From the NCBI GenBank assembly GCA_040771865.1, contig JAXGZF010000004.1, positions 124,001 through 188,000 on the forward strand: a stretch of DNA of 64,000 nt, in the 5' to 3' direction. Below are positions 47,183 to 55,047 of the stretch, in pieces (position 1 is the first letter of the stretch; every line of letters begins with the position of its first letter). Below the pieces are notes generated by a model that had not been told where the DNA came from, searched no databases, and was given only the letters and a program-made list of their open reading frames with translations. Source of the DNA: Desulfobacterales bacterium. Lineage in GTDB: Bacteria > Desulfobacterota > Desulfobacteria > Desulfobacterales > UBA2245. The translations under genes and the position numbers were made by a program.

Positions 47183-47944
47183 TCAATTTGTCTGAATCCC
47201 TTTATTATTCAGGTATCTTTTAAGATCCGATATATTAATTTCGCCAAAATGGAAAACAGACGCAGCAAGCAGAATTCCGGCCCCGCCGTCCCGCGCTGCT
47301 TCCAGGAAATGATCCATGGTTCCAGCGCCGCCCGAGGCGATCACCGGCACCTTGACCGCCTTGCTGATTCCAGAAATTAATGGAATGTCATATCCGGTTT
47401 TGGCCCCGTCACAGGCTTTACTGGTCGGCAGTATATATCCCGCGCCTCTGATTTCCGCCTCTCTGGCCCACTCAATGGCGTCTTTTCCAGTCGGAGTATT
47501 ACCACCGTCGATATAAACTTCGTATCCGGAAGCAAGGGACGGATTCCGGTCAACATCAATGGCCACCACCAGTTTGGAAGAACCGAATTTCGAAGCCGCC
47601 TGATCAATTAAACCGGGATTGCGAAAAGCCGCGCTGCTGATGGAAATGCGATCAGCCCCCGCCGTTAATACGTCCTCGGCGTCCGCGATAGAAGCGATGC
47701 CTCCGCCAACCGTAAAAGGAATGGTAGTCACCTCCGCGACCCGACGGACAGCCTCTAAAGTCGTTTTCCTTTTATCGATGGTTGCGGTGATGTCCAAGAA
47801 GGCCAGTTCGTCGGCGCCGCTTTCACAGTAAATCCTGGCGCACTCCACCGGATTTCCCGCATCTCTAAGATTTACAAAATGAACGCCTTTAACCACCCGC
47901 CCGTTCTTCATGTCCAGGCAGGGCATGATCAGGACTTTTCTCAT
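47183..47944 (-). CDS. hisF: Imidazole glycerol phosphate synthase cyclase subunit (stand-alone copy)
   Basis: PCLDMKNGRVVKG, GADELAFLDITA, VGGGI, VVAID, IASGGAG and LAASVFHFG motifs. Confidence 0.92.
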   Translation of the reverse strand: MRKVLIMPCLDMKNGRVVKGVHFVNLRDAGNPVECARIYCESGADELAFLDITATIDKRKTTLEAVRRVAEVTTIPFTVGGGIASIADAEDVLTAGADRISISSAAFRNPGLIDQAASKFGSSKLVVAIDVDRNPSLASGYEVYIDGGNTPTGKDAIEWAREAEIRGAGYILPTSKACDGAKTGYDIPLISGISKAVKVPVIASGGAGTMDHFLEAARDGGAGILLAASVFHFGEINISDLKRYLNNKGIQTN

Positions 47945-48215
47945 ATCTGAATTCTCCTTTCAATTTTATGGGATCAGAACCTGCTTGACGGAAGTTAGTG
48001 TATGTCAAAAGAGTGCTTGTTTATCAAGAAAAAAAACCTGGGTAATATTGAGTGCTGGCCAAAAAAATCCGATCAGCACTCGAAAAGCGAACGCCGCTTG
48101 GAATCGTTTGCGATCTGTTTCGCGCCTTGTCTCTCGAAGAGCCGCACGAGTTTGTGGATTTTCAATGCCGTATTTTCCTGCTATTTTCAAAGCCGTCCGG
48201 CGGACACACGTCATT

Positions 48216-49343
48216 TTATTTTCCGAGATAGGTGCAGGCTTTGGGAACGGGTCTGGAGTAGAGCAGACCATGGGTTTTATCGTCAAAGGCATTCGCTCTT
48301 TCAAACGCGTCGATGATGGACGGTATCAGCTGCCCGGCCACAATCATGTTGCTGATTTCACGTGCGGGTGAAATGTTTACCAGGTCGGAATCCTGCGGAC
48401 GCACATGTTTCAGCCTGCTGATGGTAGCGCCTGCTGCGCCTGCTGTCATGGCGGCTTTCACAAGGGCGTCCGCACGGCCTTCATTGCAGATCAGGGTCAG
48501 ATCCATGAGATTTGAAAGGTATCTGCGTCGTGAAGCCTGGTCAAGGGAGGCCATGCCGGACCTGCTGCGCCACTGGGTTCCGCCCTTGATTTCGTCAAGA
48601 GCGGTGATGATCTGCTCGATGCTGGCGGCGTGTTTTGGTATGCCCCACAAGATTTTCGTGTTCACAATGCCCCTGTCCATCGGGAATAAGTAAATGAATC
48701 CCTTTCCCGGCTCATCCAGTTTTCCGGCGTCAATCATGAGGTCCATGACGGCATCCGCATCGTGAATGCTGGCCGCCAGAGTGATTACTTCCTTTTCCGC
48801 CGGAATGGTGATGCGCAGAATTCCAAGTTTGTCGCGCACACCGGTGCCGGTTCCGAAGGTAATAAACGGCACGCAGGTTCCGGTGTCCAGAGCCACGCGT
48901 GCAACGGTGTCTCCCTGTCCGCGCTGGACGATGCAGCATATCCCTATCAGCTCGGTCAGCATCGGCAGCTTAAAACCTGTTGTCTGGGTTTTTTCGCCGG
49001 CGTTTTCCAAGCACAGCTCATGAGCTCTCAGCAGCGTGACGCTCTCGCTGTAAACGGAACCACGGCCGGGAATGTTCAGTTTGCCTGTTTTGGTAATGAT
49101 GTCCAGGGCGGTGGATTCCAGTTCGGGGCTGACCAGGAAAGACAGAATATCGACGGGGTCTTCCACGATCACGGAACGTGCTCCGATGCCGAAAACCCCT
49201 TTCTTGTACTCAAGAGCAATGGATCGTCCCGCTGCAAGGTGTCCGTTTTTCATACCGGATTCCTCGAGCGCTTTCAGTATCGGCTCCGCGACGCCGCGGG
49301 AAGTCGCCGCAACAACTCTGCAAATGGCTTTATTATCAATCAT
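48216..49343 (-). CDS. Protein of three tandem PII/GlnB-like domains
   Basis: Three ~100-aa repeats ending in GKLNIPGRGSVY, GKLDEPGKGFIY and AFDDKTHGLLY; ATGA-type overlap with the upstream DUF1538 gene. Confidence 0.75.
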   Translation of the reverse strand: MIDNKAICRVVAATSRGVAEPILKALEESGMKNGHLAAGRSIALEYKKGVFGIGARSVIVEDPVDILSFLVSPELESTALDIITKTGKLNIPGRGSVYSESVTLLRAHELCLENAGEKTQTTGFKLPMLTELIGICCIVQRGQGDTVARVALDTGTCVPFITFGTGTGVRDKLGILRITIPAEKEVITLAASIHDADAVMDLMIDAGKLDEPGKGFIYLFPMDRGIVNTKILWGIPKHAASIEQIITALDEIKGGTQWRSRSGMASLDQASRRRYLSNLMDLTLICNEGRADALVKAAMTAGAAGATISRLKHVRPQDSDLVNISPAREISNMIVAGQLIPSIIDAFERANAFDDKTHGLLYSRPVPKACTYLGK

Positions 49344-51472
49344 AGCGCGACACCATTTTCTTTGGAGACCCCGGTTTCCTCCTCAGCCAGTGCGACCTTT
49401 CGTTTTCGGGTTACCACGAGACCCACGAGCAACACGGAAAGAATCGGGCAGACCGATGCCATGGAAAGAATGCCGAAGCCCTCTACTACGCCAACCTGGC
49501 CGCCGATGCCAAGCCCCATGGCCAGAACCAGAGGAACGGTTATGGGGCCGGTGGTTACACCCGCACTGTCCCATCCGATATTGACGAACTCTTCGGTCGA
49601 GACCTTTGTGATCAACAGAAGCAGCAGATATGGCGGGCCGAGCATCCACAGTAACGGAATGTTCCATATAATTTTTGCCACACCGAAAGCAATGCCTGCG
49701 CCGACTCCTAGGGCGACGGTCTGCATGAGCAGAGATCTCTTAAACGCGCCCACGGTAAGTTCTTCTACAGTCAATCCCAGTGCGTTCAGGGCCGGTTCGG
49801 CGAGCGTAGCTCCATATCCAAGAAGAAAAGCGAAGAGCAGGACAATCATGATGCCCGACAGGCCGCCTTCAGAGCCGAAAAGCGGCCCGCGTTTCGGCGT
49901 GAAGTTGTATTGCCCGGTTTCGGGGTTGTACTGTTTCTCTTCATATGGAAGCGTCTCAAATCTTCCTTTATATTGAACATAGAAAAATGATTCTTTTTTC
50001 CCATCAGACGTTATCGCCGTCTGAACAATGTTCGGATCGAACTGGTTGATCGTGTTTTTCCGCTCAACCAGTTCGATGGCCTTGAAAGCCGAGGGCACCT
50101 TGCTGCCTACCTGGTTGCCGAGTCTTGACAGGCCGATTTCGATTCCGATGTTGAACAGCATCATACCGAATAAAGCAAAACCCAGACCGAGGAAGACCTC
50201 GTCGGCCCGCGGCAGCCGTTCGTGCAAAAGAAGCGTCAGCACGGCAAGAAAGAAAATGGAAAGCGGTATGATGGCCTGGGCTGCGGCCATGATATTTCGC
50301 AGCATCAGGTCGGCTGGTTTCAAGGGGGTCTCTTTCGGTTCGGAATATTTGGCCGCGGCTTCACATGCCGATCGACGGTCAGGAAAGATATACTCCTGTT
50401 GTTCCGCTGTTCCCTTGAGAATGGCCCAGCTCTCCAGAGAATCTTCCCGCGATCCCATAACCCTGAATCTCAAGTCTGCATTTGACTTCATTATTACAAG
50501 ATAATCCAGCATCTTATCCCGGTTTCCTTCGAAAAGCGCCAGCTGGCTCGATTCCTGCGCGTTCTGAAGTGCATATCCGATCATTTCCTCCCGGTTTTCA
50601 AACAGGGCTTGCGCCTTGTCCCGGTTCTGCAAATTGAAGAACTCCGCTTCATCCATCGGTTGCGGCACTTTTACCAGAAGGGCCGTTCCAAGCAGAAGCA
50701 CGGAGATGATGGGAAACAAGGAAGCCAGAGTGACCACGCCGAATCCCGATGATCCGGATCCCGCAGTGCCGACAATCCGGCAGATGCCTATTCCGAGCGC
50801 CAGAACCAGCGGTACGGTGACCGGGCCCGTTGTCACCGCTCCGCAGTCCCACGCCAGACCGGTTATGTTTTTCAGGTTCTCGTTAAAAAAAGACCAGAAG
50901 GTAAAAAAAACCAGGAATGAGATCAAAATATATATGAAAGGCTTGAGGGACAAGTTGTACATGAACCGTATCATTCCGAACACGACCGCGACCCCCACGC
51001 CCATGCCCACTGATACGACCAGATAGCCTGAATATTTGTTCAGCATGAGAAACAGCAGCGGCGCCTCCCATGGCCTGACGGCGGATCCTGCCGCTTTCAG
51101 CACGCTGATGGCGGGTTCCGCGAAAGTCGCGCCGACCCCGAGTACGAACGCGAAACCCAGTATGACCGCCAGTGTCGACTTTTGAGGCAGTTTCAGGCCA
51201 ATTATCTCGCCCAGCGGCATCAGACCCAGCATCAGACCCTCCATGAAAAATGCGAGCCCTACGATAACTAAAGCGAGACCGGCTGCGATCAAGGTTGCTT
51301 GAGCTATCGCGATGCCGAGCACAACGGTCTGAAAAAATATCAGGTAGATGATGACCAGCGCCACGGCCTTGACCTGTTCGAGCAGGCGCGTTTTTGCATA
51401 GGGATACAGCATGCTCATGCTCTGCCTGAAACCGACCTTGATGCGTCCTCCGGATTGTTGTTGATAGTTCAT
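49340..51472 (-). CDS. Membrane protein with two fused DUF1538 domains
   Basis: Duplicated motifs ATFAEPA/ATLAEPA, WDCGAVTTGPVTVPLVLALG/WDSAGVTTGPITVPLVLAMG and GFG..LAS..PI; GGAGG RBS. Confidence 0.85.
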   Translation of the reverse strand: MNYQQQSGGRIKVGFRQSMSMLYPYAKTRLLEQVKAVALVIIYLIFFQTVVLGIAIAQATLIAAGLALVIVGLAFFMEGLMLGLMPLGEIIGLKLPQKSTLAVILGFAFVLGVGATFAEPAISVLKAAGSAVRPWEAPLLFLMLNKYSGYLVVSVGMGVGVAVVFGMIRFMYNLSLKPFIYILISFLVFFTFWSFFNENLKNITGLAWDCGAVTTGPVTVPLVLALGIGICRIVGTAGSGSSGFGVVTLASLFPIISVLLLGTALLVKVPQPMDEAEFFNLQNRDKAQALFENREEMIGYALQNAQESSQLALFEGNRDKMLDYLVIMKSNADLRFRVMGSREDSLESWAILKGTAEQQEYIFPDRRSACEAAAKYSEPKETPLKPADLMLRNIMAAAQAIIPLSIFFLAVLTLLLHERLPRADEVFLGLGFALFGMMLFNIGIEIGLSRLGNQVGSKVPSAFKAIELVERKNTINQFDPNIVQTAITSDGKKESFFYVQYKGRFETLPYEEKQYNPETGQYNFTPKRGPLFGSEGGLSGIMIVLLFAFLLGYGATLAEPALNALGLTVEELTVGAFKRSLLMQTVALGVGAGIAFGVAKIIWNIPLLWMLGPPYLLLLLITKVSTEEFVNIGWDSAGVTTGPITVPLVLAMGLGIGGQVGVVEGFGILSMASVCPILSVLLVGLVVTRKRKVALAEEETGVSKENGVAL

Positions 51473-51613
51473 GCGTCCTCCGAAATGATTCCGTGAAAGG
51501 GATCCGAGCTTGATCTCCGGGATTCAGTGTACGGCAGAGGGCGGCTCGTTTGTCAAGCAGGAAAATGCAGCTGCCAGTGTAGCCTCATTGGTTTTTTTGG
51601 AATTTGAATCCGA

Positions 51614-51846
51614 CGGGTCGTCGAAAAAGTGTGCATTGGGCGCTGGACGTATTTTTTCGTGAAGACGACAGCAGGGTCGGAAAGGATAATGCCCCGGAAA
51701 ACTTCGCGGTGCTCAGGCATGTTGCCCCGAACATGAAAAAAAGAAACGTCGCTGAAAAAGAGCGTCAAATCCAAACGTCAGAGCCGGGTGGGACAACAAG
51801 TACTTGATGAAAATTTTAAACGGCTGATTTCCAAATGCGGTTCCCG
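51614..51846 (+). mobile_element. ISAs1-family transposase C-terminal remnant (pseudogene)
   Basis: VHWALDVFFREDDSRVGKDNAPENFAVLRH, then after frameshifts SVKSKR..AGWDNKYLMKILNG; degenerate end ATGCGGTTCCCG. Confidence 0.8.
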
Positions 51847-51864
51847 TCGCAACGCGAACCGAAC

Positions 51865-51893
51865 TTGACTTGGCAAAATGGTTTTTCTATAGT
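51865..51893 (+). promoter_or_regulatory. Near-consensus sigma70 promoter for the ferritin-like operon
   Basis: TTGACT-17 bp-TATAGT. Confidence 0.6.
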
Positions 51894-51987
51894 TTAAAAA
51901 ATATTATCCGATTTGTATTTTTGATACGATTCTCGTTCTGAAACAGTTCCAGGGCACTGATTGCATTTGCGTAAGCAAATCTGGACC

Positions 51988-52136
51988 AACAGGGTGTTGA
52001 AAAACAAGAATCAGGCCGTCAGGCAAGGCTTGCGGCGATGCGACAAGCGCAAAACATTCAAGCATATGTGAGCATTGGCGAGGGCCGCGCAACGCTGAAT
52101 GGCGGCCTCAGACGCAGTTTTTCAACAGCCTGCTAA
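51988..52136 (+). mobile_element. 149-bp MITE-like repeat, copy 1
   Basis: Terminal inverted repeats AACAGGGTGTTGAAAAAC / GTTTTTCAACAGCCTGCTAA; near-identical inverted copy at 53904-54052. Confidence 0.8.
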
Positions 52137-52196
52137 CAGGGTCTGCAATAGCAATAGACCTGTGTGCTTTCATCCTACAATTTGCAGGAGGACATC

Positions 52197-53063
52197 ATGG
52201 ATCAACAAAAACTGGCCGAGATGCTGAATCAGGATCTTGCCGACGAGCACGCCGCTATTATCCGCTATCTGGTGCACAGCTATCTGGAAGGGGAAGACAC
52301 GCCGATCGGCGCCGGCCTGCTCTCCCGAGCCAGGGAGGAGATGTGGCACATGCACTGGCTGGGAATGATTCTGGGCCGCATGGGCGTGGAACCGGAACTG
52401 GTCCCGGTGCCTTATCCTTACGACCCGACCAGCCGGGCCACAATCTTTCAATCCTATATCGCTTATGAGCAGAACCTGATTCCCCTTTATCGCAAGCAGG
52501 CCGAAGCCGTCGATGATCCCCATATCAAGCGGGTGTTGCAGCGCGAGGGCTGGGAATCGGCCATGCATGCAGGCAAATTTCAAAAGGTCCTGGACAAACT
52601 GACTCCGGAGCAGGCCGCCGGTCTGCCGGGCGGAGAAAAAGAACTTCCAGATTCGTTCATGGATAAACTTCAAAAACTTGTCGCCGGCAAATACACCCAG
52701 ATGCTTCAGGGGTTGAGAAACGCCTGGATGTTCCAAAAGGACGGACTCCTGGGCTGGAAGATCATGGATTTTTCCATGACCAAGATGAAGCAGCTGGCCC
52801 ATCTTGCGGAGACCGTGGCGGAAAACGGGATTGTTCCGCCGCTGCTGCCGGGAACGATTGATCGGAGCACGGCGGTCGGGAAAGCCCTTCAGCTCGCCCT
52901 CGAAAATATCAAGGCCTCACGTGAGATCCATCTGGCTTTTTCCAGGGAAGCCGAGTTGGAAACACACACAGGGCTTGCGAAGAATGTCAATCTGATCATC
53001 CGGCAGGAAGAGTATGAATTCCAGGAGATCGAAGGCTGGATCCAGTCTGGTTCATCGGAATAA
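52197..53063 (+). CDS. Tandem (two-domain) bacterioferritin/ferritin-like protein
   Basis: Domain 1 has DEHAA, EEMWH, YEQ and ESAMH diiron ligands; domain 2 is degenerate (SMTKMKQL, QEEYE). AGGAGG RBS before ATG 52197. Confidence 0.75.
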   Translation: MDQQKLAEMLNQDLADEHAAIIRYLVHSYLEGEDTPIGAGLLSRAREEMWHMHWLGMILGRMGVEPELVPVPYPYDPTSRATIFQSYIAYEQNLIPLYRKQAEAVDDPHIKRVLQREGWESAMHAGKFQKVLDKLTPEQAAGLPGGEKELPDSFMDKLQKLVAGKYTQMLQGLRNAWMFQKDGLLGWKIMDFSMTKMKQLAHLAETVAENGIVPPLLPGTIDRSTAVGKALQLALENIKASREIHLAFSREAELETHTGLAKNVNLIIRQEEYEFQEIEGWIQSGSSE

Positions 53064-54153: not shown

Positions 54154-55047
54154 ATGTCCAAAACCGATCCCTCGCGTTATGCATTTTTGCCGTCAAGGAC
54201 CGCTCTGAGGTCTTTTGCCTTCAATATCGGGCTGATTTCTGCAGGAAGTCTGGTTTATGTCTGGGGACTGAAAGCCCTGATCATGCCTCAGATGTTTCTG
54301 ACCGGCGGCATCAGTGGCATTGCCGTCCTGATCGTGTATATTTTTCAAAAACTGGATCTGGGCGTCGTTTATTTTCTGCTGAACATCCCCCTGGTTCTTC
54401 TGGGCTGGTTTTTTATCAGCCGCCATTTTATCCTGTATTCGATTTACGGAATGGTTTTTTTCTCCATTATTGCGATGCTGATCCATCCGCCGCCTCTTTC
54501 CATTACGGATCCGATTCTCGGCGCACTTCTGGCCGGAGTGGTCTGCGGCGCCGGCAGCGGCCTGATTCTGCGATCCGTTGGTTCCGCCGGCGGACTGGAT
54601 ATTCTGGCCATTTTTCTGAACAAAAAGTTCGGTTTCCGGCTGGGCATGTTTTCCATAATCGCAAATACCGGCATACTGACGGCCGGCGCTTTTTTCCTGG
54701 ATCTGGAAAAGGCCCTGTATACCATCGTGTTGGTCTATACTGCCGGCCGTGTGATGGATTCGGTGCTGACCGGTTTTAACCGAAAAAAATCCCTGATCGT
54801 CATTTCGGATCAGGCCCAGATCATTGCCGACGCCATTCTTGGACGCAAAAGGGGCAGAGTCACCTTTTTAAAAGGGGAAGGCGCCTTTTCCGGAAAGCCC
54901 AAAAAGGTCATTTTTACCATCATCGCTCTGACCGAGTTGCCGAAAATCAAGGAATTGATTCTGCAGAATGACCCGGAAGCCTTTATTGTGGTTAATGATA
55001 CGCTGGAAGTGCTGGGAAAAGATCAGGGTAGAATGCGGATATTCTAA
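54154..55047 (+). CDS. YitT-family membrane protein (C-terminal DUF2179)
   Basis: GGISGIA, LNIPL, GSAGGLDI, T.L.GEGAFSG and DPEAFI motifs. Confidence 0.9.
   Translation: MSKTDPSRYAFLPSRTALRSFAFNIGLISAGSLVYVWGLKALIMPQMFLTGGISGIAVLIVYIFQKLDLGVVYFLLNIPLVLLGWFFISRHFILYSIYGMVFFSIIAMLIHPPPLSITDPILGALLAGVVCGAGSGLILRSVGSAGGLDILAIFLNKKFGFRLGMFSIIANTGILTAGAFFLDLEKALYTIVLVYTAGRVMDSVLTGFNRKKSLIVISDQAQIIADAILGRKRGRVTFLKGEGAFSGKPKKVIFTIIALTELPKIKELILQNDPEAFIVVNDTLEVLGKDQGRMRIF

Follow-up and report, generated by a model that had tools for sequence, protein, structure and literature searches.

Few signal processors are as widespread as the PII proteins, which in the textbook case are homotrimers acting on trimeric or symmetric targets. 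How could such a regulator serve a transporter that is not threefold? The question is raised by two adjoining genes in a 64,000-nucleotide stretch of DNA from a Desulfobacterales bacterium (assembly GCA_040771865.1, contig JAXGZF010000004.1, positions 124,001 to 188,000), here called the window. The upstream gene encodes a 710-residue membrane protein with two DUF1538 domains, and the downstream gene a 375-residue protein with three PII-like repeats. Both open reading frames (ORFs) lie on the minus strand, and their 4-bp overlap was found as given in a preliminary description of the window. The shared letters ATGA are read from the sequence as translational coupling of the two genes.

49340..51472, minus strand: gene for a double-DUF1538 membrane protein (UmpA-like and UmpB-like, fused), 710 aa; ORF, two matches to Pfam PF07556, NCBIfam, AlphaFold2 (AF2) model
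48216..49343, minus strand: gene for a single-chain triple PII-like protein, 375 aa; ORF, homologue family
49340..49343, minus strand: ATGA stop/start overlap; the TGA of the 710-aa gene shares letters with the ATG of the 375-aa gene

On balance, our analysis favours a translationally coupled module in which a single-chain transporter of the UmpAB type would be controlled by a cytoplasmic, fused triple-PII regulator, switched by an effector, and would exchange a monovalent cation for H+. The genes, the domains, the repeat homology, the pairing and the conservation pattern were observed directly.

Three PII-type repeats in the 375-residue protein

Homologues of the 375-residue protein were abundant. 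Among 8000 scored candidates from 90% clusters, 529 reached E<=1e-3, and the best 120 were mostly 370-384 residues long. An exhaustive search over clusters at 50% identity gave 569 at E<=1e-3, 309 at E<=1e-10 and 215 at E<=1e-30. Three repeats, R1 to R3, were delimited, and conservation was calculated in bits (maximum 4.32) over 108 distinct sequences of the family.

49023..49331, minus strand: PII-like repeat 1 (R1), residues 5-107; profile match to 6yc6_A, VIA Z 8.0-8.6; least conserved, 2.17 bits
48666..48950, minus strand: PII-like repeat 2 (R2), residues 132-226; hhalign match to R1, PotN 7o4x at Z 8.1; most conserved, 3.15 bits
48234..48518, minus strand: PII-like repeat 3 (R3), residues 276-370; hhalign match to R2 at 92.1% and to canonical PII at 72% (E 3.4e-5), structural matches to SbtB and CPII; 2.56 bits

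When sub-alignments of the repeats were compared profile against profile with hhalign, R1 matched R2 at 96.4% (E 1.2e-9), R2 matched R3 with E 6.2e-7 and R1 matched R3 at 16.7% (E 1.5e-3). All three alignments were full-length and in register. This bears out the mutual homology of the repeats that had been proposed in the preliminary description. The B-loop-like motifs listed there were also present, PGRGSVY at residues 92-98 of R1, PGKGFIY at 212-218 of R2 and THGLLY at 357-362 of R3, and the GTGTG...EKE stretch (164-185) occurred in R2 only. The B-loop of R3 is degenerate (KTHG), yet a conserved AGAAGAT stands ahead of its strand 2.

The relationship to PII was followed with profiles. A profile of 40 family members was compared with the PDB and matched the PII chain 6yc6_A over residues 6-103 (E 2.9e-4) and GlnK1 over residues 186-224 (E 0.014). 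A canonical PII profile, made of 31 sequences from genomes of the same phylum as the window, was matched in register by R1 with E 1.7e-4 (92 columns), by R2 with E 1e-4 (39) and by R3 with E 3.4e-5 (75). Among relatives of the protein, the Pfam PII family PF00543 was recognised in 1 of the 120 listed homologues and in 61% of one Atlas cluster. A row naming PlsX for the 375-residue protein (E 0.14) was set aside as a chance match.

The AF2 model computed from the alignment had a mean predicted local distance difference test score (pLDDT) of 84.3 and a predicted template modelling score (pTM) of 0.83. It folded into three beta-alpha-beta-beta-alpha-beta units with the boundaries of R1, R2 and R3, and only the segments 172-180, 236-240 and 261-270 were unsure. 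Foldseek matched the model to PII and GlnK chains with probability 1.00 (TMt 0.55-0.75). With VIA-align, R1 reached Z 8.0-8.6 against GlnZ and GlnK, and R2 reached Z 8.1 against the PII-like protein PotN (7o4x). A VIA search that was independent of Foldseek gave Z 6.7 for R3 against SbtB (6mm2_A) and Z 6.1 against CPII (5d4l_A), and the PII of 8wm7 matched R1 with Z 6.8. No chain matching all three domains together was found when the 375-residue model was used in a wide VIA-align search. Since these middling Z values agree with the sequence profiles, the presence of three PII-type domains is well supported by sequence and model.

The pairing with DUF1538 is conserved

Scanning one genome per species gave 149 loci with a relative of the 375-residue protein, of which 80 were kept for neighbourhood counts. 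The relatives occurred in Desulfobacterales, Syntrophales, spirochaete lineages (Leptospiraceae, Brevinematales), Fibrobacterota, Calditrichota, Zixibacteria, Cloacimonadota, Thermodesulfovibrionales and others. A DUF1538 ORF lay directly upstream of the triple-PII gene in 74 of the 76 loci with room upstream. In detail, a full-length fused DUF1538 ORF on the same strand was found in 58 of the 80 loci, one cut by the contig end in 12, and a partial or split DUF1538 in 4 (L036, L056, L065, L084); 4 loci had less than 300 nt of room and 2 had no DUF1538 ORF. The estimated start of the triple-PII gene overlapped the upstream ORF by 1-11 nt in 48/74 loci. No third conserved neighbour of the pair was found, the next gene cluster being present in 13/80 loci.

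The DUF1538 loci were also approached from the transporter side in the phylum of the window. All four fused DUF1538 loci examined had a triple-PII gene downstream. All three split DUF1538 pairs had a PII-like gene downstream with either one domain (145 and 157 aa) or two (229 aa), so that a PII-type gene was co-encoded in 7/7 loci. Because the fused and the split loci examined both carry a PII-like gene downstream, the link between DUF1538 and PII-like proteins is general, and the triple form goes with the fused, insertion-bearing transporter. DUF1538 itself was patchy: it was present in 10 of the 201 genomes of the phylum that were sampled, in 5/6 of one family and in 0/5 of the same order. 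Such scatter suggests that the family was acquired by transfer or is often lost.

In one Desulfobacterales metagenome-assembled genome (L051:4815-10094), a fused DUF1538 and triple-PII pair is followed directly by two 261-aa DUF1538 genes and a 135-aa single PII-like gene. The fused/triple and the split/single architectures therefore coexist side by side.

The 710-residue protein is a fused member of the DUF1538 family

The Pfam family DUF1538 (PF07556) matched the 710-residue protein twice, with 347.5 bits against a gathering cut-off of 22.6, and the protein is a member of this family. As described earlier, it has two complete DUF1538 repeats and two insertions. The preliminary description had taken DUF1538 to be without an assigned function; this needs correction, as one member has been assigned. 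Two DUF1538 proteins of Halomonas zhaodongensis, each with seven predicted transmembrane segments, form the heterodimer UmpAB, which acts as a Na+(Li+,K+)/H+ antiporter in Escherichia coli KNabc (PMC5484666).

50684..51355, minus strand: DUF1538 repeat 1, residues 40-263; Pfam E 3.4e-53
49415..50257, minus strand: DUF1538 repeat 2, residues 406-686; Pfam E 7.2e-53
50318..50668, minus strand: helical linker domain, residues ~269-385; no Pfam family in 265-401, short helices 275-376 in the model, net charge -2.24
49862..50086, minus strand: beta-rich insertion, residues ~463-537, between helices 2' and 3' of repeat 2; strands 473-524 in the model, net charge -1.83

In NCBIfam, the N-terminal half was nearest to UmpA (NF041627; E 7.5e-53, 179.3 bits) and the C-terminal half to UmpB (NF041628; E 3.3e-42, 144.7 bits), but the equivalog cut-offs, 490 and 500 bits, are missed by a wide margin, so neither half belongs to these equivalogs and the substrate of UmpAB is not confidently transferable.

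Repeat 1 contains a conserved TFAEPA (116-121) and WDCGAVTTGPVTVP (208-221), which lie at helix breaks in the model, and repeat 2 contains TLAEPALNA (556-564) and WDSAGVTTGPITVP (634-647); these motifs hold invariant columns of the family. Each half has two broken helices in the AF2 model, at TFAEPA and WDCGAVTTGP in half 1 and at TLAEPALNA and WDSAGVTTGP in half 2. Repeat 2 spans 281 residues for 209 profile positions and hence holds an insertion of ~70 residues. The 137-aa piece 265-401 between the DUF1538 copies matched no Pfam family. The model (pLDDT 79.2, pTM 0.77) showed two helical halves, the helical linker at 275-376 and the beta-rich insertion at 473-524. Four carboxylates, E119, D209, E559 and D635, are invariant in the family and would fit cation or proton coupling.

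No solved relative of the fold was found. The Foldseek comparison that had been proposed in the preliminary description yielded 0 PDB matches at E<=1e-3, the best being 8iad_A with E 0.018 and TM 0.10. In VIA-align, run over 48,161 chains, the best match had Z 6.3 and none reached Z 8, the matches being mostly generic helix bundles over residues 54-448. The profile of the family gave its best match among PDB sequences to the unrelated OspA (E 0.057). DUF1538 may still have a known fold, as the searches used a model of more than 400 residues with the halves together.

Topology of the transporter

The orientation of the 710-residue protein was derived from the charge bias, calculated as the mean of K+R minus D+E per segment over 41 sequences of the family. 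Positive values were obtained for the N-terminus (+5.5), loop 2-3 (+1.85), loop 1'-2' (+1.59), loop 3'-4' (+1.0) and the C-terminus (+2.68). The linker (-2.24), the beta insertion (-1.83) and loop 6'-7' (-1.0) were negative. By the positive-inside rule, this suggests a 7+7 inverted-repeat transporter with both termini in the cytoplasm (N-in, C-in) and oppositely oriented halves. With this arrangement, the helical linker and the beta-rich insertion would both lie outside the cytoplasm, as is probable from their own charges.

The tails of split DUF1538 pairs were inspected at four loci (L131, L132, L133, L051). In three of them, K/R residues are abundant at the N-terminus of the first subunit, which lacks a C-tail, and in the C-tail of the second; in the fourth pair the tails are too short to tell. 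By the same rule, such tail charges would be expected for antiparallel heterodimers of opposite topology.

Modelled docking of the 375-residue chain on the transporter

The folds, the compact arrangement and the docking were obtained from models. For the complex, three chains were used: residues 8-280 and 372-710 of the transporter and the whole 375-residue protein. The interface score ipSAE was 0.66, 0.67 and 0.68 in the runs, and the best of 3 controls reached 0.01. In the calibration, 116 of 157 solved complexes and 2 of 215 mismatched pairs attained the ipSAE mark, counts that hold only roughly here, since the present model, unlike the calibration, had its own unpaired alignments, three chains and residues 281-371 left out. 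The runs agreed in at least 87% of contacts, with a partner pLDDT of at least 74. The docking of the 375-residue chain on the DUF1538 protein, put forward in the preliminary description, thus found support at the level of a model (ipSAE 0.67 against 0.01).

On the transporter side, the modelled interface comprised the N-terminal helix (11-25), loop 2-3 (82-97, at 82, 93 and 97), loop 6-7 (232-238), loop 1'-2' (421-428), loop 3'-4' (571-577) and the C-terminal helix (691-699). Each of them also falls in the cytoplasm according to the independent analysis of charge. The two soluble insertions noted in the preliminary description are unlikely to be docking sites: the acidic linker and the acidic beta insertion are probably extracytoplasmic, and the beta insertion lies outside the modelled interface.

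On the side of the 375-residue protein, R1 made contacts with the base of its T-loop (38-40 and 61-63) and its B-loop (91-94), R2 with residues 161-163 and with 172, 174-176 and 178-180 of the T-loop, and R3 with 310, 312 and 325-327. In the model, the chain docks with its T-loop side down and with all three repeats on the cytoplasmic loops of the transporter. Three equivalent faces pointing one way suggest the behaviour expected of a PII-like pseudo-trimer. Trimer-like packing is also hinted at by the pTM of 0.83, by VIA alignments to PII that join R1 to the last strand of R3, and by the T-loop bases of all three repeats facing the transporter. The interface residues of the 375-residue chain were more conserved than the whole chain (3.11 against 2.51 bits), a value that only 3 of 10,000 random sets reached.

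The repeats have diverged

The unequal conservation of R1, R2 and R3 agrees with the non-equivalence claimed in the preliminary description. Two further elements stood out.

48789..48854, minus strand: T-loop of R2, GTGTGVRDKLGILRITIPAEKE, residues 164-185; 3.88 bits, low pLDDT, modelled interface residues
48564..48629, minus strand: conserved helix in the R2-R3 linker, residues ~239-260, HAASIEQII..DEIKG..WR; 3.23 bits, helix 242-253 in the model

The T-loop of R2 (167-181) is, with 3.88 bits, the most conserved element of the 375-residue protein. It is followed by AGAAGA of R3 (3.64 bits), GTCVP of R2 (3.57), the B-loop of R2 (3.39) and the linker helix (239-260), which has the invariant residues A240, E243, Q244, D250, W258 and R259. 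A long and nearly invariant T-loop between strands 2 and 3 occurs only in R2 (pLDDT ~40), with a short hairpin in R1 and a short loop in R3. The low pLDDT at 172-180 in the free model is as for a flexible loop.

In canonical PII, a nucleotide site draws on the T and B loops of one subunit together with the start of strand 2 of the neighbouring one, and the lysine of the GlnB B-loop has a role in ATP binding. Both B-loop glycines are kept in R1 (PGRGSV) and R2 (PGKGFI). The one- and two-domain PII-like proteins linked to DUF1538 have three motifs in common: GA[TE]GAT precedes strand 2, GTGI[RH]E opens the T-loop and PGxG lies in the B-loop. Among these motifs, R2 keeps the T-loop (GTGxR[DE]) and the B-loop, and R3 keeps GAxGAT, which aligns with G-M-T of the GlnB of the host genome. 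If the layout of the canonical PII site applies, one of the three clefts, that of R2 with R3, would look ancestral. The host genome has two canonical PII genes.

A proposed mechanism and its alternatives

In the mechanism that we propose, the 710-residue protein would be the single-chain form of a two-subunit UmpAB-type (DUF1538) secondary transporter. Its two homologous 7-helix halves are most likely opposed in the membrane (N-in, C-in), with the insertions probably on the outer face, and each half would hold broken helices with invariant carboxylates (the AEPA and WDxG..TTGP motifs). The 375-residue protein would act as a regulator in the cytoplasm, its three diverged PII-type domains packed as a pseudo-trimer that is predicted to sit 1:1 and T-loop side down on the asymmetric cytoplasmic face of the transporter. 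R2 alone appears to keep a long, nearly invariant T-loop, and this loop would reach the transporter. By analogy with GlnK-AmtB and SbtB-SbtA, the binding of a small effector would alter the docking and switch transport on or off. The effector would probably bind at the single ancestral-looking cleft, made up of the T and B loops of R2 and the AGAAGAT of R3. The topology, the effector cleft, the gating and the substrate are the parts that we infer. The substrate is the weakest step and, by analogy with UmpAB, would most likely be a monovalent cation exchanged for H+.

Several observations speak against this mechanism or parts of it. The 375-residue protein matched neither Pfam PII (PF00543) nor NCBIfam, either whole (E<=1) or in three pieces (Pfam E<=10), and the lysine of the GlnB B-loop GDGKIF is replaced by S, F and L in R1, R2 and R3. 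Because the Pfam model is not reached and the lysine is replaced, the protein is, as judged from its sequence, not a PII family member in the strict sense; because the replacement affects all three repeats, canonical nucleotide binding is not assured. At the level of sequence, what stood of the PII assignment in the preliminary description are remote matches to canonical PII, with E 3.4e-5 to 1.7e-4. The Z values of 6-8.6 are middling for the common ferredoxin-like fold. Two of the 76 loci (L057 and L062) have a triple-PII gene without a DUF1538 gene; at L057, a weak transposase match lies upstream. No natural fusion of DUF1538 with PII was found at E<=1e-3 among longer proteins (658-2000 aa), which is weak evidence. 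The neighbourhood survey that had been proposed thus gave the upstream DUF1538 ORF in 74/76 loci and no such fusion. The UmpA and UmpB scores fall short of their cut-offs, and the calibration of the complex model carries over roughly. At 3.14 bits, the interface residues of the transporter were not more conserved than the whole protein at 3.03 bits (permutation 0.26), though above its remaining loop residues at 2.56 bits. In part, the T-loop-down pose may reflect solved PII-transporter complexes known to the model; for the DUF1538 side, Foldseek, VIA-align and the PDB profile search found no solved relative.

At L062:7001-12020, the orphan triple-PII gene has no DUF1538 gene within 15 kb. A Ser/Thr protein kinase and a GAF-sigma54 activator lie downstream, and a PLD/SNF2 helicase precedes it on the other strand.

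The same complex could carry a different substrate (inorganic carbon, ammonium, another anion or a small metabolite, for example); in that case, what UmpAB does in E. coli as an antiporter would be a side activity or specific to its distant branch. We consider this unlikely, though it is the alternative with most in its favour. UmpAB has been characterised only via heterologous complementation and vesicle assays (PMC5484666), and the equivalog scores of 179 and 145 bits stand against cut-offs of 490 and 500. R3 has its best matches in two regulators of carbon transport, SbtB (Z 6.7) and CPII (Z 6.1), and the DUF1538 fold has no solved relative that would constrain the chemistry. PII proteins that partner transporters, as in GlnK-AmtB and SbtB-SbtA, are generally known to report carbon, nitrogen and energy status, not salinity. 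Against another substrate, cation/H+ antiport is the sole experimental datum for the family, the invariant membrane-embedded E119, D209, E559 and D635 fit cation or proton coupling, and no neighbouring gene or riboswitch points elsewhere. It appears improbable to us that the triple-PII protein serves the transporter constitutively, as a structural or assembly subunit, in the form of a cytoplasmic cap that uses the PII fold as a scaffold and is free of ligand-dependent switching. The canonical nucleotide-contact residues are largely replaced, the long T-loops are lost in R1 and R3, and the strict 1:1 coupling of the genes, whose stop and start codons overlap, would suit an obligate subunit. However, conservation is highest in the very parts with which PII senses and transmits (the R2 T-loop with 3.88 bits, its Gly-rich base and B-loop, and AGAAGAT of R3), and a nearly invariant flexible loop would be needless in a pure scaffold.

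Still less probable is a role of the transporter chiefly as membrane anchor or sensor for the PII-like protein, which it would sequester as AmtB keeps GlnK from its other partners; the real output of the PII-like protein would then be on other cytoplasmic targets. PII proteins are generally known as hubs with several targets, and the orphan gene in L062 adjoins a Ser/Thr kinase and a sigma-54 activator. Yet the 80 loci showed no other conserved neighbour, the DUF1538 partner was kept in 74/76, and hub functions could fall to the two canonical PII genes of the genome. The least probable case, in our view a very remote one, is that the two products do not interact and that their adjacency reflects co-expression or co-inheritance only. 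It is true that binding is seen in models and that the RNA consists of one short contig per gene with none across the junction, but the pairing persists over several phyla with overlapping stop and start codons. In addition, one-, two- and three-domain PII-like proteins track the split and fused DUF1538 forms, the ipSAE of 0.67 compares with 0.01 for the best control, and the interface on the partner side is conserved. Taken together, we favour the module of a single-chain UmpAB-type transporter with its triple-PII regulator.

A bolder proposal, which we advance tentatively, concerns the symmetry of the PII protein. Triplication and fusion may have fitted a threefold sensor to a non-threefold, inverted-repeat transporter of 14 helices. 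R2 would then provide the sole T-loop, R2 and R3 the sole ancestral effector site, and R1 and R3 would serve as docking feet on different cytoplasmic loops; the DUF1538 fold would be one without a solved relative and the split pairs antiparallel heterodimers. If this is true, the stages of transporter evolution in the DUF1538 family, split, fused and regulator-matched, would exist next to one another.

A family of single-chain, internally differentiated PII pseudo-trimers would show how the PII fold can adapt to an asymmetric partner. In such a family, each cleft and each loop could be mutated separately, which is impossible in a homotrimer. For the DUF1538/UmpAB transporters, of which one member has been studied, the pairing would provide a regulator and hence a physiological context. 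The host organisms live in anaerobic digesters and wastewater, where ion and pH homeostasis bears on process stability.

Expression signals and surroundings of the gene pair

The signals around the two genes were inspected in the window.

51476..51481, minus strand: GGAGGA ribosome-binding site, 4-9 nt 5' of the ATG of the 710-aa gene; read from the sequence

The 12-nt string with this site and the start codon, CGGAGGACGCAT at 51471-51482 (-), has an exact second copy at 51441-51452. The copy lies 30 nt downstream within codons 7-11 of the 710-aa gene, and the letter that follows is C, not G. A promoter scan found no promoter-like site on the minus strand in the intergenic region 51473-52163 upstream of the 710-aa gene, and a terminator scan found no terminator-like site on that strand past 48216. 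Rfam gave 0 matches to riboswitches or other RNA families at E<=1 in 47900-52300, and only tRNA at 9 related loci (135,975 bases).

Upstream of the operon, the intergenic stretch of 690 nt contains, in a stop-to-stop frame at 51583-51807 (+), the C-terminal end of an ISAs1-family transposase. The frame matched NF033564 over profile positions 278-313 of 314 with E 7.6e-11, which is below the cut-off, and gave no match in Pfam. From its sequence it looks like an insertion-sequence remnant. In the window, the pair is surrounded by genes for Lon, Hsp20, HisF, YitT, UvrD, one ferritin-like and one TIM-barrel protein, none of which hints at its function. The YitT-family membrane protein, which has a C-terminal DUF2179, is encoded at 54154-55047 (+), ~2.7 kb from the operon and on the opposite strand, and is apparently unrelated.

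DNA contigs covering the operon stretch nearly whole were found in three runs of two studies, from anaerobic-digester and wastewater metagenomes; one of these runs may itself be the source of the window. In RNA, two metatranscriptome runs of one study gave one short contig each with 100% identity, 50061-50319 in the 710-aa gene and 48496-48726 in the 375-aa gene. No contig in these two runs crossed the gene junction or covered the rest of the pair, and DNA carry-over is possible; for these reasons the RNA does not show co-transcription.

Comparison with known systems

The closest known relative on the transporter side is UmpAB. Like it, the 710-residue protein consists of two homologous units of the same Pfam family, an UmpA-like N-terminal half and an UmpB-like C-terminal half; in UmpAB, the two units are required jointly. 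Unlike the two-subunit UmpAB, the units are fused in one ORF, with a helical linker of 117 aa and a beta-rich insertion of 75 aa. By analogy, the fused protein would be functionally equivalent to a covalent UmpA-UmpB heterodimer. The UmpAB paper has 0 occurrences of 'PII', 'P-II' or 'nitrogen regulatory' (PMC5484666). In the literature, neither a DUF1538-PII pairing nor a single-chain triple PII was found, subscription journals being mostly outside the search.

On the regulator side, the likeness to GlnK-AmtB (2ns1) and to GlnB/GlnK (PF00543) lies in the PII fold of each repeat, in the position of the gene next to a transporter gene and in the modelled T-loop-down docking from the cytoplasm. 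In contrast to the GlnK/GlnB homotrimer with its three equivalent clefts, the 375-residue protein is one chain with three diverged, non-equivalent domains and has one long T-loop instead of three. GlnK-AmtB is a 3:3 complex, whereas the model implies a 1:1 complex with a non-trimeric transporter; moreover, the Pfam PII family is not reached and the B-loop lysine is replaced. SbtB-SbtA and CPII (6mm2, 5d4l) are similar in that a PII-like protein is co-encoded with one secondary transporter, and they gave the best structural matches of R3 (Z 6.7 and 6.1). Unlike the present pair, SbtB and CPII are homotrimers and the transporter families are unrelated; nothing found here points to carbon transport. 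PotN (7o4x) and the PII on NrtBCD (8wm7) have a PII-type fold and both control transport, PotN being the best named match of R2 (Z 8.1). They differ in being homotrimers whose targets are the ATPase subunits of ABC transporters and not a secondary transporter.

Split DUF1538 pairs (G160, G049, G058, L051) are followed by PII-like proteins of one or two domains, which stand next to the same transporter family, in the same position, on the same strand and with the same motifs, and whose match to the R1 and R2 profiles is better than that to canonical PII. Unlike the 375-residue protein, they have 135-229 aa and are equivalent or two-fold modules that presumably assemble into trimers. A mode of working like that of GlnK-AmtB or SbtB-SbtA is known. 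What appears to be new is the covalent, internally differentiated PII pseudo-trimer with one T-loop, together with its non-trimeric DUF1538 partner and the 1:1 complex that the model implies.

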